A stretch of DNA of 64,000 nt from an uncultured Chloroflexia bacterium (GCA_963707215.1 CAVPPB010000001.1:64001-128000); one strand, 5' to 3'. Counted from the first letter of the stretch, positions 36,144 through 48,869 are shown. Numbers and translations are program-made. The notes: generated by a model not told the origin, from the letters alone.

Positions 36144-36805
36144 CGGTCGCCCCGGAAGAGATCGAGCCGCGGCTCGAGGACGGCGCGCAGGGCCAGCCGT
36201 CCCCGGTGGATCCGTGACTTCACGGTCCCCAGCGAGACGCCGGTGAGCTCGGCGATCTCGGCATAGTCGTAGCCCTCGACGTCGAAGAGGACGATCGCCG
36301 TTCGCTGGTCGGCCCCGATCCTGGCCAGGGCATCGGCCAGGGCGCGGGATCGCTCGGCCGCGACCACGACCCGCTCCGGATCCTCCGACGCGTCGGCCGG
36401 TGGCTGCCAGCTCTCGTCCTCCAGCTCCGGGTACGGCTGAGCGGGCCGCCGCTTGCGGTAGCGCTGGGTGTCCATGGCCGCGTTGATGGCGATCCGCCCC
36501 AGCCATGACCGGACGCTGCCGCCGCGGAAGGACCGCAGGTTCCGGTAGGCGCTGAAGAACGCCTCCTGGACGGCGTCGGCGGCCTGGTCCCGGTCCGGAA
36601 CGAGCCGGGCGACCAGCCCGTAGAGGTGGTCCTGGTGGAGCTCGACGAGGTCGTTGAAGGCGTCGAGGTCGCCGTCCCTGGCACGCTCGACGAGCCACAG
36701 GTCGCGACGCCGGGCCACGTCGTCGCCGGGCGAGGGCACGCGACGATCGTCAGCCAGCGGCGGGTCCCTCCGGACGGGGATGGCAAGGCGGGCCGAGTCT
36801 AGCAT
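36140..36805 (-). CDS. ECF RNA polymerase sigma factor (start uncertain)
   Basis: GDLDAFNDLV, DAVQEAF, SWLGRIAINAAMD, YAEIAELTGVSLGTVKSRIHRGR. Confidence 0.93.
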   Translation of the reverse strand: MLDSARLAIPVRRDPPLADDRRVPSPGDDVARRRDLWLVERARDGDLDAFNDLVELHQDHLYGLVARLVPDRDQAADAVQEAFFSAYRNLRSFRGGSVRSWLGRIAINAAMDTQRYRKRRPAQPYPELEDESWQPPADASEDPERVVVAAERSRALADALARIGADQRTAIVLFDVEGYDYAEIAELTGVSLGTVKSRIHRGRLALRAVLEPRLDLFRGDR

Positions 36806-36920
36806 CGGGTCTGCGCTACTCGACGCGCCTCGGCGCGCCTCGGTTCCCTGGCTCGTCCTCGACGCGGCCCGGAGCCCCCGGCCGCGGGCACGGGCAGACG
36901 GGCGCTACGATGAGCGTCCG

Positions 36921-37007
36921 GCCGGAGTGGCGGAACTGGCAGACGCGTCGGTCTCAAACACCGATGAGGGCAACCTCGTGCGGGTTCAAATCCCGCCTCC
37001 GGCACCA
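36921..37007 (+). tRNA. tRNA-Leu (anticodon CAA)
   Basis: GCCGGAG/CTCCGGC acceptor stem, TGG D-loop, tcggt-ctCAAac-accga anticodon arm, long variable arm, GGTTCAAATCC, encoded CCA. Confidence 0.97.
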
Positions 37008-37025
37008 GCGTTTCGTGCGTGAAGA

Positions 37026-37056
37026 GTGAGGGCCCGGCCGTTGGCCGGGCCCTCAC
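37026..37056 (+). terminator. 14-bp hairpin after tRNA-Leu
   Basis: gtgagggcccggcc-gtt-ggccgggccctcac. Confidence 0.7.
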
Positions 37057-37200
37057 GACTGGCCGAGGTGTAGCCAAACTGAGTCTTGCTGACCACCACG
37101 GCCCTCGCTCCGGGCCGGCTGGCGCGATCTCGCTGACCCAGGGGGGAAGGCGACCAGCCCACGGCCGGGCGACGGGGGCCGTCTACGGGCGCGCTGCCTC

Positions 37201-37229
37201 TTGCAGGACGCGTTACACGACGTCACCGT
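37201..37229 (+). promoter_or_regulatory. Putative sigma70 promoter of cassette A
   Basis: TTGCAG-N17-CACCGT, ending about 10 nt before riboswitch P1. Confidence 0.55.
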
Positions 37230-37239
37230 GCCCCCATGC

Positions 37240-37314
37240 GCGGGGGGCAGTGACGCGCGGCCAATCGCCTACGGCCGCCGGGACCGCGCCGAGCCACTGG
37301 CGAGACCGACCCGC
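37240..37314 (+). ncRNA. c-di-GMP-II-like (GAG variant) riboswitch, copy A
   Basis: P1 GCGGG/CCCGC, kink-turn TGACG..GAG, P3 CGCGG/CCGCG, pseudoknot CGG-C-CGCC with GGCG-AGA-CCG. Confidence 0.8.
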
Positions 37315-37396
37315 TGGAAACCGGATCCGCAAGAGGACCGGCCAAGTTCGATCAGGCTGAGATGGGCCTTCGGCATCAGGCGGTGAGAGGACTGCG

Positions 37397-37765
37397 ATGA
37401 CGACTGAGCGATCTCGTCTGACCGCCGCACTGTCTCTGGCGGTCGCGGTCGTCGTGATCGTCGTCAGCCCGATGCTGCTCGACGCCCCGAACCCGCTGTC
37501 GACGCCCGCTGCGGTGATCGTCGCGGTCGGCTGTGGCGGTGCGTTGCTCGGTGGGCGTGGCGCTGAGTGGGTCGCGTTGGCCGTCAGCGTGGCCGGGCTC
37601 GTGTTGTCCGTCCTGTGGCTCTGGCTCGCGAGCGATGGCTTCGGGCAGGGCACGCCCTGGTGGGACGACATCGTCGAGGCCGCGATCCTCGCTGCGGCAT
37701 TCCTCGTCGCGCTCGCCTTCCTGCTGCTTGCACGTCGGCAACGAGCACGGTCGCGAGCGACCTGA
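37397..37765 (+). CDS. Small 4-TM membrane protein (cargo A)
   Basis: RBS GAGAGG; four hydrophobic segments and a basic tail. Confidence 0.7.
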   Translation: MTTERSRLTAALSLAVAVVVIVVSPMLLDAPNPLSTPAAVIVAVGCGGALLGGRGAEWVALAVSVAGLVLSVLWLWLASDGFGQGTPWWDDIVEAAILAAAFLVALAFLLLARRQRARSRAT

Positions 37766-37971
37766 CCGCGCACAGCACCACCGCCGTCAAGGTCGCCTGG
37801 CAGCGTCTTCGGGTAGCCCGCGACGAGCGCGGCACTAACCCTCGCCCCAGCCCCGGCTCCACGTGTCGCCCTCGATCACGGCCTCGCCGTCCAGAGGAGC
37901 GGCAGCGTCCGGGGTCAGTTCGGGACCGCCGCCTCTAGGCAGTAGGTAGGCGTCACGCATCCTCCTGGCCT

Positions 37972-38050
37972 GGGCGAGAGGCCCTGACGCGCGGCCAATC
38001 GCCTCTGCCCGCCGGGACCGCGCCGAGCCACTGGCGAGACCGACCCGCCC
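37972..38050 (+). ncRNA. c-di-GMP-II-like riboswitch, copy B (pseudoknot partly mutated)
   Basis: Near-identical to copy A; ACGGCCGCC changed to CTGCCCGCC; invariant 24-nt block at 38025-38048. Confidence 0.72.
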
Positions 38051-38073
38051 TAGGTTTAGGGGAGGGCGCCCCG

Positions 38074-38187
38074 ATGGGCAGATCCTCGTGGGCGGCCGTG
38101 CCAGCCGCCCTCACACCTCCGGTGGCCGCCGGTCTCCTGCTCGCGACGGTAGTGGTGGGCGCCGAGTACCGACCCCCCGGGTCCTGA
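38074..38187 (+). pseudogene. 37-aa signal-peptide remnant (cargo B)
   Basis: GGAGG RBS then MGRSSWAAVPAALTPPVAAGLLLATVVVGAEYRPPGS-stop. Confidence 0.45.
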
Positions 38188-38221
38188 CCAGCCCGCGGCC
38201 GGGCGACGGGAGCCGCTCGGC

Positions 38222-38824
38222 CTACCGAGCGCGACGATGTCGCTGGGAGCGTCGGTTGGCCGTCAACCCGAGCCCGGCCATCAGCGCCAGGAGACCAAGC
38301 CCGGCCGGTCCCCGCGGCGGTGATGGCTGACGGGCCGCGGCGGCGGTATCGGTCTCTGGCAGGACGGCGAAGCGATGGGTGACCGTGACCGAGTAGTCGC
38401 TCGAGCCCATGACGACGACATCGCTCCAGATGACCCGCTGCCCGTAGGTCTCGCCGCCATCGGCATCGGCATAGAAGCCGATCGACCAGCGGTACTCGAC
38501 CCGCGCCCCAGGCGGGACGGGGAACGACACCACATAGATCCGGCCGTTCTCGCAGGGCGGTGGCAGGTAGGGACCTCCCGGGTAGTCGGCCTGGACCGAC
38601 TTTGGCTCGCAGATGGTGGTGCCGGACGTTCCCTCCTCGTGCATGAAGAAGACGTTCGCCGGGACGGGGCCTCTGAGGGCCAGGCGCAGCGTCAAGGTGG
38701 GCCAGTCCGACTCGGCGGTCGCGACCGCGACGGTCTGGGCCGCGGCTGACGGCACCTGGCTCAACAGCAGGGCGACGCCGCACGCAAGTAGGGCCAACCG
38801 CGCCGTCCATCGATGAGCGCGCAT
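38222..38824 (-). CDS. Secreted protein with C-terminal LPETD + TM + basic-tail sorting-like signal
   Basis: Signal peptide ..VPSAAA; C-terminus VLPETDTA...GLGLLALMAGLGL..RRSQRHRRAR. Confidence 0.75.
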   Translation of the reverse strand: MRAHRWTARLALLACGVALLLSQVPSAAAQTVAVATAESDWPTLTLRLALRGPVPANVFFMHEEGTSGTTICEPKSVQADYPGGPYLPPPCENGRIYVVSFPVPPGARVEYRWSIGFYADADGGETYGQRVIWSDVVVMGSSDYSVTVTHRFAVLPETDTAAAARQPSPPRGPAGLGLLALMAGLGLTANRRSQRHRRAR

Positions 38825-38933
38825 CGCTCGTCATCCCTCCGGATGAGTTGAAGCCATGGCTTGAAGCTCGTGGATGAGACGCGCACAGCCGGCCAGCGTG
38901 AGCACAAGCCCACAGCCACCCCCGCCGGCCGCT

Positions 38934-39006
38934 CAGGCCCTCGGTCTCTTGCCCGGTACGTTCCACGACCGGCACCCTCGACGCCATAGCGCGGGGGGTG
39001 CTGCGC
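38934..39006 (+). promoter_or_regulatory. Cassette leader copy C: promoter plus only the first ~15 nt of the riboswitch
   Basis: CAGGCCCTCGG..TTGCCC-N18-CACCCT..GCCATAGCGCGGGGGGTGCTG matches leaders D and E, then diverges. Confidence 0.75.
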
Positions 39007-39056
39007 TCTCTCCTGCCAGCCCGCCTCGCGACGAGGCGTCCCGGGAGGCAGCGACA

Positions 39057-39596
39057 GTGCGCGGCATCCTGCGAACGATTGCCGTCACGCTTGCGACCGC
39101 GACGCTCACCGGGGTCGCTCTTCTCGGCGATGCTCCGCCCGCCTAGGGCGAGGAGCTTGGGCTGGGCGGGCCGAGCCGCGTCGTCGGCGTGACATACGTG
39201 CAGCCACAGTGCGGCGATGCCATCTTCGCCGGCGACTCGGTCGGCTCGGTTCGCATCCAGAGGCCCTTCTCGGAGGCCCACCAGAACTACGACGGGATCT
39301 ACATCACATATAGGTTCAAGGGGCCGTGGTGCCTGATCCAGCCCGACCTGTTCTGGTCGATCTACCTGACGACCGATACGCACCCGAGAACCAGGCTCCA
39401 GAACTTCAACATGCCCTGCAGCGGCTCTCGGGATCGCGAGTACGAGTCGACCATCTATCTCCGATACCTTGGCATCGACTACACAGAGGCTGAGCTCTTC
39501 GCCGAGACCGTGACATTCGAGGTCCACCTCGAGGGCGACGACGGCTTCTCGGGGATCTGGGCGCCCTTCATGGTTGGATCGAGTCCGAGCGAGTAG
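39057..39596 (+). pseudogene. Secreted protein (cargo C) with in-frame TAG at 39144-39146
   Basis: GGGAGG RBS, GTG start, signal peptide VRGILRTIAVTLATATLTGVALLGDAPPA-stop-G, continuing in frame into ORF 39189-39596. Confidence 0.65.
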
Positions 39597-39725
39597 CCCG
39601 CCGCTCCACCGCCCGCGCCTCCAGCCCGTCCCAGAACGCCGAGGTGGCGCGCTGGCGGCCCTCGGCCCCGGCCTGCGCCTCCCAAGGCCGCCACGGCCGC
39701 CTCGGCCGCCTCCGGGGGCGTATCC
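39597..39725 (-). pseudogene. Small conserved ORF family, copy S1 (5'-truncated, frameshifted)
   Basis: TPPEAAEAAVAA/WEAQAGAEGRQRATSAFWDGLEARAV. Confidence 0.65.
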
Positions 39726-39733
39726 GGCTGGAC

Positions 39734-39775
39734 GAGATCGCTATCCGGCCACGGAGCCGGGGGCGAGCGACACCC
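39734..39775 (-). repeat. ~40-nt hairpin element H1
   Basis: Minus strand GGGTGTCGCTCGCCCCCGGCTCCGTGGCCGGATAGCGATCTC; matches 45051-45089. Confidence 0.75.
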
Positions 39776-39783
39776 TAGGTGGT

Positions 39784-40158
39784 TCACCTGGTCGAGAGCC
39801 ACCATCCGGCGGCGCACCCGGCGGAATAGGCGAGCACCCCGGCTGTGCCCGCGATGAGCCAGTAGGGGTAGAGGTCGGGGTCGACCCGGCCGACGACGAG
39901 GGTCCACAGGTGGGGAAAGACGGTAAAGGCAAGCCAGCCGCCGAGGGCACCCGCGATCGCGGCCCAGATCGTCCGGCCACCCCACCGGGCAGTGGCTGCC
40001 CCGACCATGACGGCCAGCAGGGGCGGAAGGGCGAAGAGCACCAGCGCGCCGAAGCTGAGCATGAGGGCCGGAAGCTCGAAGAGCGCCGCCCAGCCGGCCA
40101 CGGCGACCGCCGTTCCGATCGAGCCGATCACAAAGGCCCGGCCGGTGCCGATCGCCAT
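39784..40158 (-). CDS. Small 4-TM membrane protein
   Basis: MAIGTGRAFVIG...; four hydrophobic segments. Confidence 0.65.
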   Translation of the reverse strand: MAIGTGRAFVIGSIGTAVAVAGWAALFELPALMLSFGALVLFALPPLLAVMVGAATARWGGRTIWAAIAGALGGWLAFTVFPHLWTLVVGRVDPDLYPYWLIAGTAGVLAYSAGCAAGWWLSTR

Positions 40159-40271
40159 GGCCCAACGGTCGCCGTCACCGCTGCCTGCGAGCGGGCTGAC
40201 CCCTTGTGACTTCATCTCGGAAGGGTTGACGCCGCAGGCGACGAACCGTTGCACGAGCCAGCCCGCGGCCA

Positions 40272-40367
40272 GGCGACGGCGTCCGTTCAGGCCCTCGGCC
40301 TCTAGACCCGTACGTTCCGCGACCGGCACCCTGACCGCCATAGCGCGGGGGGCGCTGACGCACGGTC
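40272..40367 (+). repeat. 96-nt leader shared with 44173-44268 (4 mismatches), including the TAGACC-N18-CACCCT promoter
   Basis: Direct manual alignment. Confidence 0.92.
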
Positions 40368-40423
40368 GATGAGCCACGGCCGCCCAAGACGACCCTGCTG
40401 AGCCACTGGCGAGACCGACCCGC
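40345..40423 (+). ncRNA. c-di-GMP-II-like riboswitch, copy D
   Basis: GCGGG..TGACG..ACGGCCGCC..GAGCCACTGGCGAGACCGACCCGC, ~10 nt before the RBS. Confidence 0.8.
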
Positions 40424-40442
40424 CTGCCCGAGAGATGGAGTC

Positions 40443-41603
40443 TTGCGCATGCACAGGCGACTGTTCGCCGGCGCCATCGCGGTCTTGGCAACGCTGGCAA
40501 TCGCTTCGCCGGCGGTCGCTGCACCGCCGGCCAACGACACCTACTCCGGCCGGGAGTTGCTCCTCGACCCGCTGCCGATCATGGTCATGGCGGATACCAC
40601 CGAGGCAACCACTGACGCAGACGACGCCGAGCTGGATGTCCAGTGCGGTGCGTCGGCGGTCGATGCTAGCGTGTGGTACGAGTACACGCCCACGCTGGCC
40701 GGCGACTACGAGATCAACACCCTCGCCTCGGACTACAGCGTCGGCGCGATCGTGGCCATCGGCGGCCCGGGCGGCTGGACCCTGTTGAGTTGCGGTCCCG
40801 GGACCATCCCCTTCACTGCGATCGCCGGGGAGACGTACGCGATCCTGATCTTCGACGACCAGACCGACGGAGGCGGCAACGGCGGCTATCTGGAGTTCTC
40901 GATTGCGCCGGTGGTGCCGAACGAGCCGCCGGTGGCCGACCCGAACGGGCCGTACCTGGGCGCGGTTGGTGCCGCGATCTCGTTTGACGGCACTCGATCG
41001 TCGGACCCCGAAGGCGACACGCTCACCTACGACTGGGACTGGGGCGACGGCACGTCCTCTACTGACGTTGGGTCCACGCCGACCCACACCTACGATGCCG
41101 CCGGCATCTACGACGTGTGTCTGACGGTGACCGACCCATCCGGCGCATCGGGTAGGGCCTGCACGTCGGCCGTCGTCTACGACCCGTCGGCTGGGTTCGT
41201 TACCGGCGGCGGCTGGATCGACTCGGTGGCCGGCGCATACGTGCCCGACCCGACGCTGACAGGCAAGGCGACCTTCGGGTTCGTGTCCAAGTACACGAAG
41301 GGCGCCGCTACCCCGACCGGCAACACCGAATTCGTGTTCCAGACCGCCGACCTCAACTTCCATGCGACGAGCTACGACTGGCTGGTCGTGACCGGCAGCG
41401 ACTACGCCCGCTACAAGGGCATCGGCACGATCAACGGCACGGGCGACTACAAGTTCCTGCTGTGGGCCGGCGACAACGACCCGGACACGTTCCGGATCAA
41501 GATCTGGACCGAAGACGCGGCCGGCGTCGAGGCCGTCGTCTATGACAACGGGATGGATCAGCCCATCTCGGGCGGCAGCATCGTCGTCCACACCAAGAGG
41601 TAG
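40443..41603 (+). CDS. Secreted PKD-domain surface protein (cargo D)
   Basis: Signal peptide, APPANDT, ASVWYEY, PKD (NEPPVAD..SSDPEGDTLTYDWDWGDG..HTY), C-terminal GFVTGGGWI domain. Confidence 0.88.
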   Translation: MRMHRRLFAGAIAVLATLAIASPAVAAPPANDTYSGRELLLDPLPIMVMADTTEATTDADDAELDVQCGASAVDASVWYEYTPTLAGDYEINTLASDYSVGAIVAIGGPGGWTLLSCGPGTIPFTAIAGETYAILIFDDQTDGGGNGGYLEFSIAPVVPNEPPVADPNGPYLGAVGAAISFDGTRSSDPEGDTLTYDWDWGDGTSSTDVGSTPTHTYDAAGIYDVCLTVTDPSGASGRACTSAVVYDPSAGFVTGGGWIDSVAGAYVPDPTLTGKATFGFVSKYTKGAATPTGNTEFVFQTADLNFHATSYDWLVVTGSDYARYKGIGTINGTGDYKFLLWAGDNDPDTFRIKIWTEDAAGVEAVVYDNGMDQPISGGSIVVHTKR

Positions 41604-41605
41604 GA

Positions 41606-41735
41606 GCGACCGCCCACGCGTCCAGATCCGCCCAGAACGCCGAGGTGCCGCGCTCACGGCCCTCGGCGTCCCCTCGCACCTCCCAGGCCATCATCGCCGC
41701 CACGGCCTCCCCGGCAGCCTCCTGGGTGCATGCGC
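41606..41735 (-). pseudogene. Small conserved ORF family, copy S2 (degenerate)
   Basis: QEAAGEAVAAMMAWEVRGDAEGRERGTSAFWADLDAWAV. Confidence 0.6.
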
Positions 41736-42000
41736 GGTCGCGTGGACGGGGCGACCCTGGAAGACCGCGCTCTACTCCGGGCGCTCTCCTGGCTCCTCAG
41801 CCCGGAGGCCTCGGGCCTGCTCGCCTCCCACGGGTCCGGTGGTCGCATCCCGAGCCCAGTTGGTCGGATCCATCAGGCGAGAGAACCGCGCACCCAGCGC
41901 AGCCAGGCCGCCAGCACTCAGCGCGGCTAGCTCCTCATCGGCTTGGGCGCGATCCGCCTGCTGCTGCAGTGCTTCGTCGACGGCGATGAGCGCTTCGGAC

Positions 42001-42225
42001 ATGGCCTCGGCCGACCAGCCGTTCACGATCCGCTTCGCCAACAACGACGCTGGGGTCCCCCACAACGCCGAGATCAAGGACGGATCCGGAGCGACGGTCT
42101 TCCTGGGCGAGATCTTCAACGGCGTCGACACCCGCGACTATGCCGTGCCGGCGCTGCCGGCCGGGACCTACACCTTCGTCTGCACGGTCCACCCGAACAT
42201 GACCGGCACCCTGACGATCGGATAG
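42001..42225 (+). pseudogene. Cupredoxin domain fragment lacking the N-terminus and signal
   Basis: FTIRFANND..PHN...GTYTFVCTVHPNMTGTL type-1 copper ligands; no RBS or export signal upstream. Confidence 0.7.
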
Positions 42226-42280
42226 GCGACCAGCCCGTCCCCTGGGTTGCCCTCGACGTGACACTTGGATACGAATCCAC

Positions 42281-42703
42281 GTGCACGGGAGGATCGCCTT
42301 GGAGATCGCGCTCGCCGGCTTGCTCACCCTGGCGGTGCTGACGCCGGTCGCCATGTACGTGCTTCGGCGTCTCGATGAGCCAGGGCCGTCGGCGTACGCC
42401 GATCCGATGGATTCCGTCTACAGAGCGAACGCGACGGTCGATGAGCTGCTACCGACGTATGCGGCCCTCGGGTACGCGGTAGTCTCCCGCTCCGAGTTCC
42501 AGGCTCACCTCTTCCGGACCGAACCAAGCCACAAGAGGGACTCGAGCCGGAACCGACCACGAGAGATTCGACTCCACACTGACTTCACCGACAATGTCTG
42601 GGCCGACGGTCGGGGCGCCGTCTGCCCTGTATGCGGCCATCCGCGCCGTGGCGAATTCCGCTGCGCGAGGTGCAAGTCGAGCGAGACGGGACTTCCAGCG
42701 TGA
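42281..42703 (+). CDS. Membrane-anchored hypothetical protein with C-terminal zinc ribbon
   Basis: N-terminal TM; CPVC...CARC. Confidence 0.55.
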   Translation: MHGRIALEIALAGLLTLAVLTPVAMYVLRRLDEPGPSAYADPMDSVYRANATVDELLPTYAALGYAVVSRSEFQAHLFRTEPSHKRDSSRNRPREIRLHTDFTDNVWADGRGAVCPVCGHPRRGEFRCARCKSSETGLPA

Positions 42704-42934
42704 TGGACCTTCGCTGGAGGGTGACTGGCGGTTCACCAAGCGGGAGTCGCGACCGGCCAAGGCGGCTGCCAAGGGCTTCCACCTAGCCTCCCGCCACGGC
42801 CCCCGCTTCCCAGTACGCCCCATCGCCGCGCTGGCGGCCCTCGGCCTCGGCCAGAGCGGATCCGTCGTTTCGTCGTTCATCAGGGGCATCGTAGTCTGGC
42901 GCGGGCTCGGCCAGCCGGAGACGGGGGCGGCCGA

Positions 42935-43528
42935 CTAGACCTTCCCGACCGCGGCCGTGCCCACCGAGATGGTCGGTTCGCGGAACGGGCTGCGGTCCGC
43001 GAGCCGGGTGAACGTCACCGTGACGAGCACGGAGCCCTTCAGGAAGTACCCACGCTCCAGATCGTCGACCCAGAGGGCGCCATCGCCGATGTCGAGCGCC
43101 TCCGCTCGGTCAGCCAGCGCCTGCTTGGTGTCGGCGAACGTGTTGGCCCCGTTGCCGGGCTCGACCATCACCGACAAGCCACCCCAGTCCTCGACCCAGC
43201 GACATTCGGTCACATTCGGATCCTGGTCGGATCCGAGCCGGTTGAGGTCACCGTCAGTGGCGCTGGCGGCGTCCAGGCCCAGGGCCGCGGCGACGTCAGC
43301 GGCGGTGACCAGCTGACACGCGGTCAGGTCGGTGCCCGGGGCCGCCGGGGCACCCCCACTCTCGTTCTCGCCGGTGCCCTCGCTCGCCTCGGCCTCGGGC
43401 GATGACGTGGCCGAGGCCCCACTCGGGGCGCTGGTGGTCGCCGCACCGCCGCAGCCCGCGGTCGCGAGCAGCACGCTCAGGACGATCGTGGCGGTCGTAC
43501 GACCGCCGATTACGTGGACGCTCAACAT
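42935..43528 (-). CDS. Lipoprotein (DUF3558-like)
   Basis: Lipobox LATAGC, Ser/Ala linker, ACQLVTAADV..CRW, DIGDGALW. Confidence 0.75.
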   Translation of the reverse strand: MLSVHVIGGRTTATIVLSVLLATAGCGGAATTSAPSGASATSSPEAEASEGTGENESGGAPAAPGTDLTACQLVTAADVAAALGLDAASATDGDLNRLGSDQDPNVTECRWVEDWGGLSVMVEPGNGANTFADTKQALADRAEALDIGDGALWVDDLERGYFLKGSVLVTVTFTRLADRSPFREPTISVGTAAVGKV

Positions 43529-43750
43529 CGCGCCACCCCCTTCTCCTGCATCGTGGGCGGCACCAGTCGAAGCGCCGCCGGCCGGGACCTACGGAGAGCT
43601 GCCTCGACCTCGCAGGCGTCCCTCGAATCGTACGACCAAGCACCAGCCCCTCCAGGGCCTAACACCCGGTGGCGAGGTGACCGACAGGCCGTTCCGGGCG
43701 CAACACTCGAGCCCGATGGGCGTCATCCCGCTGATCGAAGGAAGGTGCCG

Positions 43751-43990
43751 ATGTCCCTTGGCTGTTCCGGGCGGGCGGCGATCTTCGCGCTCGTCCTCCT
43801 CGTCGGCGCGCTGCCCGCTGGGGTGATCGCGGGAGCCGTGCCAGGCCGGATCGTTGGGCTGCTACAGCGGCGTGGGGCCGTTCCTCCTCCTCGTGGTGGT
43901 CGTGGTTGCCGCGGCTCTGATCGCGGCCTCACTCCCCTGGGCGAGAGGACGAGCCCGGATGGACGCTGGCCGCTGCATCGCCCGCGACCG
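43751..43990 (+). pseudogene. Small membrane protein remnant (frameshifted)
   Basis: GAAGGAAGGT RBS; hydrophobic segments in two frames. Confidence 0.3.
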
Positions 43991-44245
43991 CAACGGCTTC
44001 GAGGGCATCCTCGAGGCCGGCCACGTCGGTCCCCATGCGGCCTCCAGGGTGATCCGGAGCTGGGTCGACGAGCCCACGCCGCCCACCGAGAAGGAGTCGG
44101 CAGGCGTACTGGCCGAGGAAGCCACGACGGCAACCCCGGACCAACCCCACGGTCCTGACAAGCCCACGACCGGGCGACGCCGTCCGTTCAGGCCCTCGGC
44201 CTCTAGACCCGTACGTTCCACGACCGGCACCCTGACCGCCATGGC

Positions 44246-44324
44246 ACGGGGGGCGCTGACGCACGGTCCCAGAGCTACGGCCGCCTGAGCGGACCGTGCC
44301 GAGCCACTGGCGAGACCGACCCGC
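44246..44324 (+). ncRNA. c-di-GMP-II-like riboswitch, copy E
   Basis: P3 CACGGTCC/GGACCGTG, ACGGCCGCC loop, invariant 3' block at 44301-44324. Confidence 0.82.
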
Positions 44325-44368
44325 TGGACCCATCCGCAACGACGCGGAAGCTCGGGAGGAACACGGTC

Positions 44369-45022
44369 ATGGGTTCGGTCTCGCACTTGCGGCGCTGGCG
44401 CCTCGTCGTCGGCATCATGATCCTGAGCCTATTCGCGATCCCGGCAGCGGGCATCGTGGTCGGCGCCACGACGCCCTTCCAGCAGGTCATCGTGACCAAC
44501 CCCGAGGAGAGTCCAATCCCCGTGTCGCTGACGGGCAGCAACGCGATCTCGGGCACCGTCACTGTCGGCAACCTGCCCGCGACCCAGCCCGTCTCGGGGA
44601 CGGTAAACGTGGGGAACAGCCCGACGGTGCAACTCGCCTCCGACTCGATAGTGGCCGTCGTCAACCCGACAGACGACCAGCCGCTTCTGGTTCAGGAGGT
44701 TGCTTCGGCGACGCCGTCACCCGCGGAGATCCTGCCACCGACTGGCAACACCATCATCGGCCCTGCCCGGCTCCAGATGGACTCCGTTGGCACATATCCA
44801 ATCCTGAGGGGCACGGTGTCGCTCGACTTCTGCATCACGGTCGTTCTCCTCGATGCCAACGGCTACGCGGAATTCCAAGCGAACCCGACCAGTGATTCCA
44901 CCTGGTACGGCATCTGGCCCGATGGCCCATTGGCAAGGTGTGAGGCGAGCAAGCAGAACGCCAACATCGACAATCATGTGGCCGGGACAGCTCTGGTCTA
45001 TCGCATCGACAGAATCCCCTAA
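44369..45022 (+). CDS. Secreted hypothetical protein (cargo E)
   Basis: GGGAGG RBS; signal peptide; QVIVTNP..PIPV, SGTVTVGN/SGTVNVGN repeats. Confidence 0.75.
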   Translation: MGSVSHLRRWRLVVGIMILSLFAIPAAGIVVGATTPFQQVIVTNPEESPIPVSLTGSNAISGTVTVGNLPATQPVSGTVNVGNSPTVQLASDSIVAVVNPTDDQPLLVQEVASATPSPAEILPPTGNTIIGPARLQMDSVGTYPILRGTVSLDFCITVVLLDANGYAEFQANPTSDSTWYGIWPDGPLARCEASKQNANIDNHVAGTALVYRIDRIP

Positions 45023-45050
45023 CGATTGGGGCCGAGCCGTCACCTCCCAG

Positions 45051-45089
45051 GGGTGTCGCTCCCCGGCTCCGTGGCCCGCTAGCGATCTC
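45051..45089 (+). repeat. ~40-nt hairpin element H2
   Basis: GGGTGTCGCTCCCCGGCTCCGTGGCCCGCTAGCGATCTC, about 30 nt after the cargo E stop. Confidence 0.75.
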
Positions 45090-45322
45090 CCACCGAGTAG
45101 CACCGCGACGACAACGTCCTGCCTGCGCCACGGTTCGGACATAGCCCGACGCTAGCCCTTGCTCAGAGGCACGCCGATGCGGATGTCCCGCAACCAGGGC
45201 GACCGGCCCAGGGAAGGGACGCGGGCCGTTGCGTCGACGCACCGGGTTCGCAGGCCCTCAGGCCGGCTGGTCGAGGATCGCGGGCTGCGTCTGGAGCACC
45301 GGTGGCCTACGCTCGGGGCATC

Positions 45323-45402
45323 GGCGGGAGGCACTGACGCAAGATCCGAGCCCACGGCCGCCGCACCGGACCGCGCCGAGCCACTGGCGAGACCGACCCG
45401 CC
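45323..45402 (+). ncRNA. c-di-GMP-II-like riboswitch, copy F
   Basis: GGCGGG/CCCGCC P1, TGACG, ACGGCCGCC, invariant block at 45378-45401; TACGCT -10 at 45308-45313. Confidence 0.8.
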
Positions 45403-45425
45403 CGTCTTACCCTGGAGGTGGCGGT

Positions 45426-45977
45426 ATCCGCAGGATCGGTCTCGTCGCGCTGGTGGTGCTCGCCTTGATGGCGTCCGCGACGATCGTCTCGGCCGACAAC
45501 GGCAAGGCGGTCCCCGGCTGGAACTCGAACTCCAGCAAGTACACGGCCATCTCGGTCGCCAACCCCAACGACCCGAGCGAGGTGTCGGCCACCCTGGTCC
45601 GCGAGCGAACCTCCGACGCGGTCCTCGACCAGCACATCACGGCCCTCAACAACTGTGACTGGGCCGGGCTGATGCAGCAGTACCCCGATCAGTACGAGCT
45701 GCGACTCCCCGGCGGGGTACTCGTCTCCGGTCGGGAGGAAGCGGCCGAGACGTTCGCCGGCTTCGTCAAGCCATACACCGAGGGCGGGCTCTGCGGGATC
45801 ATCTTCAGCGAGGTCTCCCGCGATGTCGTCGCCGGCACCCTGGCGGTGAGCTGGGTCGCCGATGCCCCCTTCCTGGCTGAGCCGTACTACGGCGCGGACG
45901 CCTACATCACCGACGACGGCCTGATGGTCTCGATGGTCAGCACCTTCGACGGCGCGGAGCTGGTCTTCGCTCCCTAG
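45426..45977 (+). CDS. Secreted NTF2/SnoaL-like protein (cargo F), apparent ATC start
   Basis: GGAGGT, 6 nt, then ATC-RRIGLVALVVLALMASATIVSA; VLDQHITALNNCDW..GRE..DAYITDDGLMV. Confidence 0.75.
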   Translation: MRRIGLVALVVLALMASATIVSADNGKAVPGWNSNSSKYTAISVANPNDPSEVSATLVRERTSDAVLDQHITALNNCDWAGLMQQYPDQYELRLPGGVLVSGREEAAETFAGFVKPYTEGGLCGIIFSEVSRDVVAGTLAVSWVADAPFLAEPYYGADAYITDDGLMVSMVSTFDGAELVFAP

Positions 45978-46159
45978 GCCGTCCTGGACGCGAAGAACGC
46001 CGGGGTGCCGCGCCCTCGGCCCTCGGCCTCAGCCAGCCCCTCCCAGGCCGCTACGGCCTCCTCGGCCGCCTCCGGGGGCATCCGGGCGACATCGCGCAAC
46101 CGGGCGACTTGGGCGGCCCGGGGGGCCTGGTGGATGCGCTCGGGATCGCGACGTCGCAT
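45974..46159 (-). CDS. Small conserved ORF family, copy S3 (61 aa, most complete)
   Basis: MRRRDPERIHQAPRAAQVARLRDVARMPPEAAEEAVAAWEGLAEAEGRGRGTPAFFASRTA. Confidence 0.65.
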   Translation of the reverse strand: MRRRDPERIHQAPRAAQVARLRDVARMPPEAAEEAVAAWEGLAEAEGRGRGTPAFFASRTA

Positions 46160-46264
46160 GGCGGCGCGGTCGGGCCCGGGGGTTGACCTGCCGCTTGACG
46201 CGAGGCGGACGATCCCATCAGCGGCGACCTGCCCCGGGCATCGACGATCGACGAGGACCCTTCG

Positions 46265-46660
46265 ATGGACGTGCGACGGATCGGCTTCGTGGGGACGCGG
46301 ACCGACCACTTCTCCGAGACCACCCGGTTCTTTCGCGACGTCCTCGGGCTGGCCACGTACTACGAGCGGCCCGACTTCGTGATGCTCGCGCTGCCCGGCG
46401 CCGAACACGATTTCGTGGAGATCATCGGTCCCGACGCAGAGGGCTCGGAGTTCCAGGCCGCCACCTACACGACGGGCCCGGTGGTCTCGTTCGAGGTCAG
46501 CGACCTGGTCGCCGCCCGGGACGAGCTCGAGGCGGCGGGCGTCGAGTTGCTCGACGACATCACCTGGTCGCGCAGCATCGCCGGCTTCGGCTGGTTCCAC
46601 TTCCGGGGACCGGACGGCAACGTCTACGGGATGCAGGGCTCCCGGGCCAGCGGCGGCTGA
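46265..46660 (+). CDS. VOC/glyoxalase family protein
   Basis: RFFRDVLGL, SFEVSDL..LEAAGV, FRGPDGNVY. Confidence 0.9.
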   Translation: MDVRRIGFVGTRTDHFSETTRFFRDVLGLATYYERPDFVMLALPGAEHDFVEIIGPDAEGSEFQAATYTTGPVVSFEVSDLVAARDELEAAGVELLDDITWSRSIAGFGWFHFRGPDGNVYGMQGSRASGG

Positions 46661-46786
46661 GGCCCGCTTGTACCTGGGCGAGCAGGGACTGGGTCGGGGG
46701 CGACCGGCCGCTTCGCCGGGGCGGGGCGCTGATCCGCCCGCCTGATCCACGGTCCGCAGCCGGCCAGCCCGGACATCAGCGCGCGA

Positions 46787-47266
46787 CTAGCGAGCCAGGC
46801 GGACCCTCGGACCGTCGGTCCCGGCTCGCCAGGACTCGACGACGTGGGCGTCCCGGGTCTCGTTGAGGCGCACCAGCGAGGCGTCCTCGAGCTCGATCCG
46901 GAAGAGTGCGAGGCCGCCCGGACCCAGGTCATGCGGGATCCGTGCCACGAATTCGTCGAGCGCAGGGCCCCCGGTGACCTCGACGGCCCGACCGTGCAGC
47001 TTCGCCTCCCCGTCGGTCGCGGCGGCCTCCGCCCCGGCGCTGTGGAGTGACATCCGGGGATCCCGCCGAAGGTCCGCAGCCTTCATCGACTCCGGCATCC
47101 CCAGCCAGAGCTCGCCGTCGGCGAACGTCGGGACCACGCCGCTGATCCGCGGGAACCCGTCGGCCCGAAGCGAACCCAGCAGCGCATGGCTGCCCGACTC
47201 CAGGCGCGCCCTCACAGCCGCCGCCAGGTCCGGAGCGGAACGTTCGAAGCCTGCCCACGACATCAC
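46787..47266 (-). CDS. Pyridoxamine 5'-phosphate oxidase family protein
   Basis: LGSLRADGFPRISG, SMKAADLRRDPRMSLH. Confidence 0.88.
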   Translation of the reverse strand: MMSWAGFERSAPDLAAAVRARLESGSHALLGSLRADGFPRISGVVPTFADGELWLGMPESMKAADLRRDPRMSLHSAGAEAAATDGEAKLHGRAVEVTGGPALDEFVARIPHDLGPGGLALFRIELEDASLVRLNETRDAHVVESWRAGTDGPRVRLAR

Positions 47267-47435
47267 GACCGAGTCTACCGCCCGGCCGGAGCGTCAGCTC
47301 CAGATGGCATGTCCCACGCGGCCGCCTCGCTCCGGCGTCGGTCGCTCGTGGAGCGACGGGCCTTTGTGACAGAAGTCCCTAGGCGACCCTCCCTGCGACC
47401 CGGAGCATCGCGACAACCGTAGCCGGAGGGACTTG

Positions 47436-48869
47436 ATGACCGAGACCGTGATCGGACCTGTGGGCGGGGGAATCGACTCGGAGGCCGCCCTGGTGGACGG
47501 ATCACGGATCGCGGTGATCGGCGGTGGGCCGGCGGGATCGCTGTTCACCTACTTCCTGCTCGACATGGCCGAGCGGGTCGACACCCGCCTCGACGTCGAC
47601 ATCTACGAGCCGCGCGTCTTCTCCAAGGCCGGAGCGGTCGGCTGCAACATGTGCGGCGGGATCATCTCCGAGTCGCTCGTCCAGAACCTCGCGGTCGACG
47701 GTGTCTGGCTCTCCACCGACGTGGTCCAGCGCGGCATCGACTCCTACGTGCTCCACACGGACGTCGGCAGCGTCCGGATCGCGACCCCCAACGACGAGAT
47801 GCGGATCGGGGCCGTCCATCGCGGCGGCGGACCGCGGGACGTCACCGAGACCAAGTGGGAGTCGTTCGACCAGCACCTGATCGACAGCGCGATCGAGCGC
47901 GGCGCGAAGTTCATCAACGCCCGCGTCGAGGACGTCGGCCGCGCCGACGGTCGGCCGACGATCCAGGTCAAGGGAGGCGAGCCCGTCCCGTACGACCTCG
48001 TCGTCGTCGCGACCGGCGTCAACACCTCGATCCTCAAGATGTTCGAGAGCATCGGGATCGGCTACGAGCGGCCCAAGCTCACCAAGACGCTCATCCGCGA
48101 GTACTACCTGGGCACCGACGTGATCAACGAGGCGATCGGCACCTCGATGCACGTGTTCCTGCTCAACATCCCGCGCCTCGAGTTCGCCGCCCTGATCCCG
48201 AAGGGCGACTACGTGACCATGTGCCTGCTGGGCGAGGACATCGACAACGATCTCGCGGACGCCTTCGCGGCAGCGCCCGAGGTCCGGGCGGTCATGCCCG
48301 AGGGCTGGGACTCGGAGGCCAAGAGCTGTCAGTGCCTGCCGCACATCAACATCCACGGGGTGGAGAAGCCGTACGCCGACCGGGTGGTCTTCATCGGCGA
48401 CAGCGGCATCACCCGCCTGTACAAGGACGGCATCGGCGCGGCCTACCGGACCGCCAAGGCAGCCGCCCGGACGGCCCTCTTCGAGGGCGTCTCGGAGCGG
48501 GCGTTCCGGGAGCACTACATGCCGGTCTGCCAGTCCATCCGCGGCGACAACCGGATCGGTGAGTACGCCTTCGTCCTGACCCGCGTGGCCCAGCGCCTCC
48601 GGATCATGCGTCGCGCGATCATCGCCATCGCCCGCGACGAGCAGACGACCGGCCGTCGGCCGCGGCTCAGCGGGATCCTTTGGGACATCTTCTCCGGCAG
48701 CGCGCCGTACAGCGACATCTTCCGGCGGATGTTCGACCCGATGCTCGCCGTTCGTGGCGTCGTCGCGATGCCGGGGGTCCTCGTGTCGACCGTGCGCGGC
48801 TCGAGCGCGGCGCCCCCGGCGACCGCGCCGCCACCAGCAGGACCTGGATCCCAGGAGGTGGGCTCATGA
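47436..48869 (+). CDS. FAD/NAD(P)-dependent oxidoreductase (geranylgeranyl reductase-like)
   Basis: VIGGGPAG, CNMCGG, VVATG, IGDSG..LYKDGIGAA; RBS GGAGG. Confidence 0.85.
   Translation: MTETVIGPVGGGIDSEAALVDGSRIAVIGGGPAGSLFTYFLLDMAERVDTRLDVDIYEPRVFSKAGAVGCNMCGGIISESLVQNLAVDGVWLSTDVVQRGIDSYVLHTDVGSVRIATPNDEMRIGAVHRGGGPRDVTETKWESFDQHLIDSAIERGAKFINARVEDVGRADGRPTIQVKGGEPVPYDLVVVATGVNTSILKMFESIGIGYERPKLTKTLIREYYLGTDVINEAIGTSMHVFLLNIPRLEFAALIPKGDYVTMCLLGEDIDNDLADAFAAAPEVRAVMPEGWDSEAKSCQCLPHINIHGVEKPYADRVVFIGDSGITRLYKDGIGAAYRTAKAAARTALFEGVSERAFREHYMPVCQSIRGDNRIGEYAFVLTRVAQRLRIMRRAIIAIARDEQTTGRRPRLSGILWDIFSGSAPYSDIFRRMFDPMLAVRGVVAMPGVLVSTVRGSSAAPPATAPPPAGPGSQEVGS

Follow-up and report, generated by a model that had tools for sequence, protein, structure and literature searches.

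A stretch of 64,000 nucleotides from an uncultured Chloroflexia bacterium, below referred to as the window, contains within about 8 kb five elements that resemble class II cyclic di-GMP (c-di-GMP-II) riboswitches with an altered core. This raises the questions of what these elements are, how they act on the genes behind them, and whether they still respond to c-di-GMP.

The five elements belong to the c-di-GMP-II-GAG family

The first-pass annotation of this DNA had pointed to an invariant core in five copies. A search that tolerated 3 mismatches found this 24-nt core exactly five times in the window, at 37291, 38025, 40400, 44301 and 45378, always on the + strand and with 0 mismatches, and 100 dinucleotide shuffles gave 0 matches. 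The annotation had also proposed a search with Infernal and the Rfam models, and when this was run, the c-di-GMP-II-GAG model (RF03169, gathering score 40 bits) matched all five sites with 55.3-63.5 bits over model positions 1-86 of 86:

37234..37320, + strand: aptamer A, c-di-GMP-II-GAG type; 63.5 bits with RF03169 and 83.8 bits with the model built in this analysis; equivalents of G67-A68-G69 at 37302-37304
37968..38054, + strand: aptamer B, the weakest copy; 55.3 bits
40339..40428, + strand: aptamer C; 57.5 bits; equivalents of G67-A68-G69 at 40411-40413
44240..44328, + strand: aptamer D; 62.3 bits; equivalents of G67-A68-G69 at 44312-44314
45318..45407, + strand: aptamer E; 57.0 bits; equivalents of G67-A68-G69 at 45389-45391

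The parent model (RF01786, gathering score 53.5 bits) gave sub-threshold scores of 32.6, 29.5 and 33.2 bits for the copies at 37234, 37968 and 44240, and did not list those at 40339 and 45318 at E ≤ 0.001. The resemblance to the GAG variant that had been suspected is therefore real, and the five elements are members of c-di-GMP-II-GAG (RF03169), an already catalogued family whose aptamer is a naturally occurring variant of the class II c-di-GMP aptamer. A sixth intact copy was found in the window neither with the Rfam models nor with our own model. The variant is said to have been defined by Weinberg et al. in PNAS in 2017, who reportedly already raised the possibility of a different ligand.

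The fold and the pseudoknot are maintained by compensatory changes

The P3 covariation quoted in the first-pass annotation was present when the 37234 and 44240 copies were compared, with pairs GCGCGGCC/GACCGCGC in the former versus GCACGGUCC/GGACCGUGC in the latter, and the loop CGGCCGCC and the strand GGCGAGACCGACC can pair as the pseudoknot described there. In an alignment of 99 related sequences, 97 of them distinct, 87.5% of the cells were paired and 21 of the 26 pairs showed changes on both sides; none of 500 shuffles was as good, and slid controls reached 30-41%. The P2 kink-turn (UGA / GGA) helix, P1 and P3 are upheld by compensatory changes, with both-side changes in 16 of the 18 nested pairs among the 97 distinct sequences, and 80%, 95% and 88% of cells paired in P1, P2 and P3, respectively. 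The pseudoknot, which joins the P3 loop (CGGnCGCC) to J2/1 (GGCG...CCG), was paired in 95.5% and 99.7% of the cells of its helices, the variation in this alignment coming mostly from parent-type rows and J2/1 being fixed by the seeding pattern in 72 of 100 loci. Because the alignment was partly seeded in this way, the invariance of J2/1 across phyla is partly built in. Among the 16 copies of the genome itself, 90.3% of the cells were paired (91.7% and 100% in the pseudoknot), and 9 of 25 pairs had both-side changes.

The ligand pocket differs from the parent at the G-alpha reader

J2/1 reads AGUgGUGCAACCGg in the parent versus AgUGGCGAGACCGa in the variant, and GGCGAGACCG was read in all five window copies and in 13 of the 16 copies of the genome. 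In the numbering of PDB 3Q3Z, G-A-G replaces the parental G-C-A at positions 67-69 (C68 to A, A69 to G), which is presumably the basis of the name "GAG". In the 3Q3Z structure, A69 gives three hydrogen bonds to G-alpha of c-di-GMP, A61 forms the ceiling of the pocket, A70 is the intercalator and G73 reads G-beta (PMC13715770). Compared with these contacts, the variant copies keep A61, A70 and G73, and the position of the G-alpha reader A69 is occupied by G in all five window copies. The comparison with the parent and the alignment thus agrees with the earlier description of a pseudoknot with compensatory changes next to an altered pocket.

The genome, a Limnocylindrales-like Chloroflexota metagenome-assembled genome (MAG), contains 16 GAG-type aptamers and a single canonical c-di-GMP-II aptamer, the latter upstream of an HD_5 (HD-GYP type) gene. 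The five window copies precede five different genes for secreted or membrane proteins, that of B being an ORF of 37 codons only. Genes downstream of such aptamers are mutually unrelated (PKD, SnoaL-like, SRPBCC, methyltransferase, hydrolases, and many without a family), and 44 of 79 distinct downstream ORFs start with a hydrophobic segment; the gene set resembles a second-messenger regulon. Profile searches of the genome gave 11 GGDEF, 3 EAL and 1 DAC matches. In a search for a Hypr-type signature, the residue nine after the conserved Asn of the GGDEF domains, read by eye without a reference alignment, varied (E, E, G, G, E, S, A and D), and it is given no weight here. As a predictor of these aptamers, the presence of GGDEF was rejected: it occurs in 15 of 15 same-family relatives and does not discriminate, because four of them without an aptamer match (G003, G006, G008 and G009) also have it.

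The literature searched names no ligand for c-di-GMP-II-GAG. In that literature the family is an orphan, and any genome that uses it heavily is therefore of help. Judged from the sequences, the ligand would be a cyclic-dinucleotide-type second messenger with at least one guanine. The leading candidate, at slightly less than even chances, is c-di-GMP read in a changed way, which would make the five elements ordinary c-di-GMP riboswitches whose GAG pocket still binds this molecule, perhaps with lower affinity than the canonical one; the c-di-GMP level to which the secreted-protein genes respond would then differ from that of the HD-GYP gene. Of the four pocket residues that stack or make base-specific contacts, three are retained, secreted and surface proteins are the usual output of c-di-GMP, GGDEF domains are plentiful, and SMODS (PF18144) cyclases, the sole family searched for a synthase of another messenger, were found in 0 of 25 genomes (completeness 73-97%). 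However, the adenine with three hydrogen bonds to G-alpha has become G in the window copies, the same genome retains a canonical aptamer with this adenine, and GGDEF domains are also plentiful in the relatives without a GAG aptamer match.

A messenger that is not c-di-GMP, for instance 3',3'-cGAMP, a further hybrid or a linear dinucleotide, is a somewhat weaker but serious candidate, and would imply two riboswitch regulons on one scaffold. The G-alpha reader alone is changed with the G-beta reader G73 kept, the same genome carries parent and variant in front of different sets of genes, and in a Chloroflexi MAG a GAG-type aptamer lies in front of a class III nucleotidyl cyclase domain (locus L119). 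Furthermore, small changes to the c-di-GMP-II scaffold change which cyclic dinucleotide binds, because in BhP1-5delC a single deletion retunes it to cGAMP isomers (PMC13715770). Against this stand the gene associations, which look like those of a c-di-GMP regulon, and the SMODS search, which yielded no candidate synthase. If it were true, the HD-GYP phosphodiesterase gene would be controlled by the canonical aptamer, and a large set of small secreted proteins with rapid turnover by the 16 GAG aptamers, each fused to the common promoter-like cassette; the signal behind the latter would be one to which no riboswitch of the c-di-GMP-II fold has so far been assigned. That the ligand is something else altogether seems unlikely.

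Each aptamer lies in front of its own gene

Around the aptamers, the following features were found:

37224..37229, + strand: putative -10-like hexamer CACCGT of A, 4 nt before the aptamer, with TTGCAG 17 nt upstream
37397..37765, + strand: gene after A, a 122-aa hydrophobic membrane protein; Shine-Dalgarno sequence (SD) GAGAGGA at ~37385-37391; 76-nt spacer from the aptamer
38074..38187, + strand: sole ORF after B, 37 codons, hydrophobic, with a 30-nt dispersed repeat and then a convergent gene immediately behind it
38923..39003, + strand: leader relic, in which ~16 nt from the aptamer 5' end follow a promoter-like leader with 85% identity to the leaders of C and D
40256..40338, + strand: conserved leader of C, with inverted repeat AGGCC-CTC-GGCCT, -35-like TAGACC and -10-like CACCCT (40327-40332)
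40449..41603, + strand: gene after C, a secreted PKD-domain protein (PKD_4, E 2.2e-22; GC3 0.87); SD GGAG at 40437-40440, ATG at 40449
44157..44239, + strand: conserved leader of D, -10-like CACCCT at 44228-44233
44369..45022, + strand: gene after D, a 217-aa protein with an N-terminal hydrophobic segment, without Pfam family
45308..45313, + strand: -10-like TACGCT of E
45426..45977, + strand: gene after E, a secreted, weakly SnoaL-like protein (SnoaL_2 at E 2.4e-4, which is below the cut-off); SD GGAGG at 45414-45418

The protein after A gave no Pfam family above the cut-off. In the gene after E, codon 45426 is ATC, the ortholog has ATG, and the next GTG is at 45453; this protein has one 50% paralog and orthologs at 70-79%. 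Paralogs of the proteins after A, C and D were found neither in the genome nor in the related loci retrieved.

Copy B stands apart. In the alignment, its P1 contains an A-C mismatch and its short pseudoknot helix a C-C mismatch, and since it also has no full-length gene, this copy may be decaying. Its ORF is probably a truncated cargo, because the dispersed repeat and the convergent gene follow directly. It is conceivable, if doubtful, that this one copy is a remnant or works in antisense; its transcript would then run into the convergent surface-protein gene (38222-38824) and control no gene of its own. B has the lowest score of the five, no terminator-like site follows it, and the short ORF gives way to the repeat and then to the convergent gene's 3' end; moreover, a survey that used the RF03169 model proposes antisense-acting riboswitches (PMC9943018). 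On the other hand, B still reaches 55.3 bits, and its SD and ATG are retained at normal spacing.

In the relic at 38923-39003, a short hairpin, GGCGTCCCGGGAGG and a short signal-peptide-like ORF take the place of the remaining aptamer sequence, and neither Rfam nor our own model matched it. It could be the sixth element implied by the labels A-F of the first-pass annotation. The same layout recurs at locus G000:C3:154814.

The downstream sequences point to control of translation

An SD follows the aptamer at 5-65 nt in all five copies, on the same (+) strand. The first-pass annotation had put the end of P1 ~10 nt before the ribosome binding site in two copies, its D and F; the distance is 7-9 nt for the copies at 40339 and 45318, but 25 nt for that at 44240 and 65 nt for that at 37234. 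Its suggestion of translational control remains the best reading of the downstream sequence: a terminator scan of 37000-46200 gave 1 site (1.6 expected), inside the gene after C, and none after any of the five aptamers, and in the relatives an SD comes shortly after P1. An SD and start codon could be called, by the rule of this analysis, in 68 of the 92 variant-type relatives with enough downstream sequence, and in 51 of these 68 the SD begins 0-13 nt past P1.

The direction of switching was approached through pairing between the aptamer and the start site. In D, the start-codon region 44363..44385 (+ strand) is complementary to the aptamer 3' strand 44309-44327, giving an alternative helix of -29.2 kcal/mol (z -3.0; of 100 shuffled strands, 1 scored as low). 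In E, 45419-45447 is complementary to 45385-45407 (-32.5 kcal/mol), and the corresponding duplexes of A, B and C reach merely -13 to -18 kcal/mol. As a family-wide rule, pairing of the aptamer 3' strand with the SD-to-start region was rejected (n=83, mean z -0.20, 48 of 83 below zero; 8 of 83 at ≤5 of 100 shuffled strands each), and it is retained for copies D and E only. Control would take place at translation initiation, the invariant 3' strand GGCGAGACCGACCCGC being locked in P1 and the pseudoknot once ligand is bound. Without ligand, this strand would in D and E pair with the start-codon region, and ligand would therefore turn translation on. On these sequences an ON switch seems slightly favored, and an OFF switch only a little less probable. 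A CGUCCC motif that recurs before the SD in 17 of the 92 relatives could support an OFF design instead, and MFE folds of aptamer plus leader were noisy and did not decide between the two.

Leaders, clusters and the unit of regulation

A separate -10-like hexamer lies 4-6 nt before each of the five aptamers. These hexamers are weak (CACCCT, CACCGT, CATCCT, TACGCT), and a scan for the sigma-70 consensus over 37000-46200 gave 0 promoters (0.4 expected), so that the promoter at copy A is a putative one. At the DNA level, the ~60 nt before the aptamer are conserved in at least 15 loci, in some of which the aptamer itself has decayed or is absent, and C and D have 164 nt in common at 90%. Such conservation and recent duplication of copy pairs are what one would expect from a DNA-level promoter cassette with an incidental RNA fold, or from a structured leader that binds no small molecule (a protein site, stability element or thermosensor), but this is highly improbable given the compensatory changes in P1, P2 and P3, a pseudoknot paired across phyla, the homology to a ligand-binding aptamer of known crystal structure, most of whose pocket residues are retained, and the fixed orientation and distance to the SD.

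A cluster of this density, taken in the first-pass annotation to be unusual, is nothing out of the ordinary in this lineage. Relatives have up to 25 such aptamers per genome, also clustered, with 5 copies in 5.9 kb (G023:C13), 6 in 18.8 kb (G005:C4) and 3 in 2.9 kb (G023:C10), and named MAG records show 3 copies in 1.5-4 kb. The 30-nt dispersed repeat was rejected as a marker of further aptamers (1 aptamer in each of two repeat clusters, 0 in a third).

Overall, the explanation that we hold with good confidence is that the five elements are RF03169 members, which would control translation in response to a cyclic-dinucleotide-type ligand. Each would form an independent unit, in which a promoter-like leader is followed by an aptamer at or near the mRNA 5' end, an SD, and a single secreted- or membrane-protein gene. 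The gene lists indicate that what the signal of the GAG aptamers governs in Limnocylindria and Nitriliruptoria is for the most part small exported proteins whose function is unknown, and that their genes lie in islands with gain and loss of cassettes. The genome offers a natural side-by-side comparison, since one cell carries a canonical aptamer and 16 variants that precede other genes and show a defined difference of one residue at the position that reads G-alpha; this provides clean constructs for ligand screening and reversion mutants. Present knowledge of riboswitch mechanisms is unchanged by these copies.

Comparison with known systems

With Rfam family RF03169 (clan CL00127) the five copies share the P1-P2(kink-turn)-P3 fold, the pseudoknot, the J2/1 sequence and the location in a 5' leader, and no feature excludes membership. 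Local features are a C instead of the consensus U in the loop opposite A68, the shared promoter-like leader, and the high copy number per genome. The canonical c-di-GMP-II aptamer (RF01786; PDB 3Q3Z) has the scaffold, the pseudoknot and A61, A70 and G73 in common with them, whereas the window copies have G at A69 and A at C68, a pseudoknot recoded from GUGC:GCAC to GGCG:CGCC, and an SD directly after the aptamer without a terminator or ribozyme expression platform. The c-di-GMP-II-Bh aptamer (BhP1-5delC) binds both 3',3'- and 2',3'-cGAMP; it is an engineered single-nucleotide deletion of a Bacillus aptamer that retains the adenine, and the upper base is read by its counterpart of A69 (PMC13715770). 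In the natural GAG variant, without a reported ligand, this adenine is instead replaced by G. Finally, tandem c-di-GMP-II riboswitches, of which PMC9481103 lists 59 doublets and 9 triplets, also place aptamers of the clan close together, but there a single gene carries the stacked aptamers in one leader, whereas the aptamers in the window lie 0.7-3.9 kb apart, each with its own promoter-like leader and its own gene.

Five GAG-type aptamers in the window

The first-pass annotation had located an invariant core in five places, and its positions were exact: the core is a 24-mer, GAGCCACTGGCGAGACCGACCCGC, which occurs five times, each time on the + strand. All five sites had 0 mismatches in a window search that permitted 3, and no match was found in 100 dinucleotide-preserving shuffles. 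The assignment of these elements to the c-di-GMP-II-GAG variant was borne out by the covariance-model check that had been proposed. When the whole window was searched with the Rfam 15 models at their gathering thresholds, the GAG variant model RF03169 (cut-off 40 bits) gave five full-length matches, designated A to E by position.

RF03169 matches in the window
Aptamer A, 37234-37320, + strand, 63.5 bits
Aptamer B, 37968-38054, + strand, 55.3 bits
Aptamer C, 40339-40428, + strand, 57.5 bits
Aptamer D, 44240-44328, + strand, 62.3 bits
Aptamer E, 45318-45407, + strand, 57.0 bits

The sole further Rfam match in the window was a tRNA, which ARAGORN identified as tRNA-Leu(CAA) at 36921-37007, and a scan of 36500-47500 with a permissive E-value gave no extra aptamers. 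Our own covariance model, built from the genome's 16 copies and run unfiltered on the whole window, recovered A to E at 73-84 bits, with the runner-up at 19.9 bits. A to E are members of an already known orphan variant class, although the individual elements are new; the original observation is confirmed and its interpretation supported.

Covariation of the fold

The covariation in P3 quoted earlier for these copies is correct. For a broader assessment, 99 matches from relatives and named MAG records were aligned to the model. This alignment is biased in one respect: 72 of the 100 searched loci had been collected with a pattern in which J2/1, the strand joining P2 to P1, was fixed, so that J2/1 conservation and, in part, the outcome for the pseudoknot are built in. 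The Rfam structure including the pseudoknot showed 87.5% standard pairs here, and 21 of 26 pairs had changes on both sides. None of 500 shuffles was as good as the real alignment, and pairing fell to 30-41% when the 3' partners were slid by 1-3 columns. The genome's own 16 copies, chosen without the J2/1 pattern, gave 90.3% pairing, compared to 28-47% in the slid controls, and double changes in 9 of 25 pairs. P1 position 10 is G-C in most copies, A-U in one, and an A-C mismatch in B.

Distribution in the genome and its relatives

The source genome (3.26 Mb in 5 contigs, 85% complete) contains at least 20 RF03169 matches at E<=0.001, based on scoring 150 of approximately 7,000 first-look candidates. 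Seventeen of these 20 were above threshold, one of the 17 being a canonical c-di-GMP-II aptamer. Our own motif scan found the core at 19 of these 20 loci, the exception being this canonical aptamer, which is without the variant core, and gave 13 further weak matches with 3-4 mismatches. Among 40 relatives, a match was present in 19 of the 24 that belong to the same family and in none of the 16 small genomes from the sister family. The highest copy counts were 25, 19, and 18, and clusters occur here as well (5 aptamers within 5.9 kb in one case, 6 within 18.8 kb in another). The exact J2/1 pattern was found in more than 126 stretches of species-representative genomes; the 80 matches listed were mostly from Chloroflexota, Chloroflexia or Limnocylindrales MAGs, with 10 from Nitriliruptoraceae/Nitriliruptorales and a few from Actinomycetes, Acidobacteria, and others. 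The closest orthologs of two regulated proteins were likewise found in Limnocylindrales and Chloroflexia MAGs.

A conserved leader and signs of cassette turnover

A -10-like hexamer whose second base is A and whose sixth base is T (CACCGT, CATCCT, CACCCT, CACCCT, and TACGCT for A to E) precedes each aptamer and ends 4-6 nt from its modelled 5' end. Another hexamer, TTGNNN- or TAGNNN-like, is found 16-18 nt upstream of the first. A strict consensus scan found no promoters, and the promoter reading is therefore one that we infer. The leader shared by C, D, and a broken leader unit, or relic, comprises approximately 60 nt kept at 80-94% in at least 15 genome loci and contains the inverted repeat AGGCC-CTC-GGCCT. 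Since the aptamer is decayed or absent at some of these loci, and comparable upstream motifs are present in other genera, selection seems to act on the promoter region in its own right. The window thus adds a conserved promoter-like cassette to what is known of the class.

The relic leader (38923-39003) showed 85% identity to the C and D leaders in a repeat analysis. Of the aptamer it retains no more than approximately 16 nt at the 5' end, after which come a GCCTCG-CGA-CGAGGC hairpin, GGCGTCCCGGGAGG, and an ORF of 29 codons (39058-39147, ending in a stop) that resembles a signal peptide. The same aptamer-less layout is found at 154736-154900 of contig C3 of the source genome G000 (G000:C3:154814). 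The relic may account for the additional element implied by the labels A to F of the first-pass annotation. Downstream lies a 135-aa ORF (39189-39596) in a frame that differs from that of the relic ORF, with a 97.6% identical paralog at G000:C3:399185-399559; the two ORFs could be a split gene or reflect an assembly frameshift.

Decayed units with a conserved leader and a gene still downstream are located elsewhere in the genome:
G000:C3:1300330-1300543, decayed unit
G000:C1:256691-256900, decayed unit
G000:C1:51050-51250, decayed unit

Their aptamers are without the GGCGAGACCGACCCGC strand or without most of their length, and the C1:51 kb unit lies before a gene whose product is paralogous (50%) to the protein after E. 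Signs of cassette turnover are thus seen in the relic, in copy B, and in these decayed copies.

Two further repeats were observed in this region. A dispersed repeat with the 30-nt core GACCAGCCCACGGCCGGGCGACGGGGGCCG (0-4 mismatches), which contains an inverted repeat ACGGCC...GGCCGT and has no match in Rfam, is present at 37112-37181 and 38186-38215 of the window and has 16 copies in G000, including C1:257-259 kb, C3:181-183 kb, C3:394-398 kb, and C3:1266 kb. Many copies carry approximately 40 nt of additional conserved 5' sequence, and they lie in islands of small genes, mostly upstream of promoter-like leaders. Another repeat of 50-100 nt (39628-39717, 41629-41726, 42808-42857, and 45989-46077, and also G000:C3:399061-399145) lies immediately 3' of several cassette genes, just past the stop codon, its copies being 67-86% identical with an inconsistent reading frame.

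Downstream genes

The five aptamers precede the following:
After A, a 122-aa hydrophobic protein
After B, a 37-codon ORF only, then the dispersed repeat and a convergent gene
After C, a secreted PKD-domain protein
After D, a 217-aa protein with an N-terminal hydrophobic segment and no family
After E, a secreted protein with a SnoaL-like match below threshold

No paralogs of the proteins after A, C, and D were present in the genome. The units are therefore a single regulatory module placed before unrelated genes, and not copies of a duplicated gene family. Other aptamers in the genome precede an ATC_hydrolase-domain protein, an alpha/beta hydrolase, SRPBCC, a methyltransferase, DUF6326, and several proteins without family, and the relatives add SnoaL, SRPBCC, methyltransferase, DUF642, beta-helix, and SCO4226-like proteins. 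A hydrophobic start was seen in 44 of 79 distinct downstream ORFs, a raw count without a control set in which some starts are surely mis-called.

The gene after E has ATC at 45426-45428, 7 nt after the Shine-Dalgarno (SD) sequence, where a 79% identical ortholog (locus L030) has its ATG start, so that it would use either a rare AUC start or GTG at 45453 with a truncated signal peptide. Two other genes lie among the units. A 200-aa secreted protein (38222-38824, - strand), with a C-terminal LPETD, spacer, hydrophobic segment, and basic tail, matched no Pfam family. A cupredoxin-like C-terminal domain (41998-42225, + strand; FTIRF...HPNMTGTLTIG), with no aptamer linked to it, has five paralogs elsewhere in the genome at 37-97% identity.

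Expression platform

No terminator-like site follows any of the aptamers, and an SD sequence starts behind each aptamer end (after 5-7 nt in B, 8-9 in C, 25 in D, 7 in E, and 65 in A). Control of translation initiation is the best-supported mode. Among relatives, 92 variant-type aptamers had enough downstream sequence to be scored; our own rule called an SD and start in 68, and in 51 of these 68 the SD starts within 13 nt. In D, 44309-44327 is predicted to pair with 44363-44385, spanning the ATG (-29.2 kcal/mol), and in E, 45385-45407 with 45419-45447 (-32.5 kcal/mol); with these helices the ligand would act as an activator. Such an alternative helix in the start region was not found in A, B, and C, and start-region pairing was not enriched family-wide (mean z -0.20 over 83 sequences). 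A CGUCCC motif lies 5' of the SD in 17 of the 92 relatives and could be part of another switch design.

Signalling enzymes and the ligand

RF03169 is a curated Rfam family, and our literature search found it named only in method sections, with no paper naming its ligand. Weinberg et al., who defined the variant in 2017, reportedly raised the possibility that variants of this kind sense other signalling molecules. The genome has matches to 11 GGDEF, 3 EAL, and 1 DAC domains. A search of 25 genomes gave no SMODS cyclase, and GGDEF was present in all 15 same-family relatives searched, four of them without an aptamer match; these findings do not discriminate between the ligand hypotheses. A GAG-type aptamer of a Chloroflexi MAG (L119:246-619; 36 bits with our own model) lies approximately 80 nt 5' of an ORF with an N-terminal class III adenylate/guanylate cyclase domain (Guanylate_cyc, E 4.6e-10); among 41 downstream ORFs scanned against Pfam, no other connects the variant with a nucleotide cyclase.

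The canonical aptamer, in locus L017 (G000:C2:19400-20267), is tentatively linked to a membrane HD-GYP-type gene, with an HD_5 domain (E 1.7e-37) approximately 0.8 kb downstream. The intervening ORFs are in three different frames, and the HD_5 gene therefore looks frameshifted, either in the assembly or as a pseudogene.

Comparison of the ligand pocket with canonical c-di-GMP-II

The canonical aptamer is the only one of its kind in the genome (G000:C2:20184-20267) and scored 59.6 bits with the parent model RF01786 (threshold 53.5), whereas the GAG-type loci of the genome scored 29.5-40.9 bits. The strand from P2 to P1 reads AGUgGUGCAACCGg in the parent consensus, taken from the alignment of the canonical aptamer, and AgUGGCGAGACCGa in the variant consensus. 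In the pocket of PDB 3Q3Z, the ceiling is an adenine, A69 makes three hydrogen bonds to G-alpha through its sugar edge, A70 intercalates between both ligand bases, G-beta is read by G73, and the first P2 pair, A14-U60, stacks on the ligand backbone (PMC13715770). We infer the equivalent positions of the variant strand by transferring this numbering; when the first A of the strand is taken as A61, the parent consensus has A, A, and G at positions 69, 70, and 73, and the mapping is therefore self-consistent.

Compared to canonical c-di-GMP-II, positions 61, 70, and 73 are the same in all five window copies, whereas C68 is replaced by A and A69 by G, and the pseudoknot pairs change from GUGC:GCAC to GGCG:CGCC. 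Across the genome's 16 copies, positions 67-69 are GAG in 13, GGG in 2, and further divergent in 1. The loop nucleotide facing A68 is C in the window copies and mostly C in the 99 aligned sequences (C 60, U 29, G 7, A 3), and for this reason a standard pair at A68 is formed in only 38% of cells. The window thus adds a defined pocket difference from canonical c-di-GMP-II, with the canonical aptamer of the same genome as a natural internal control.
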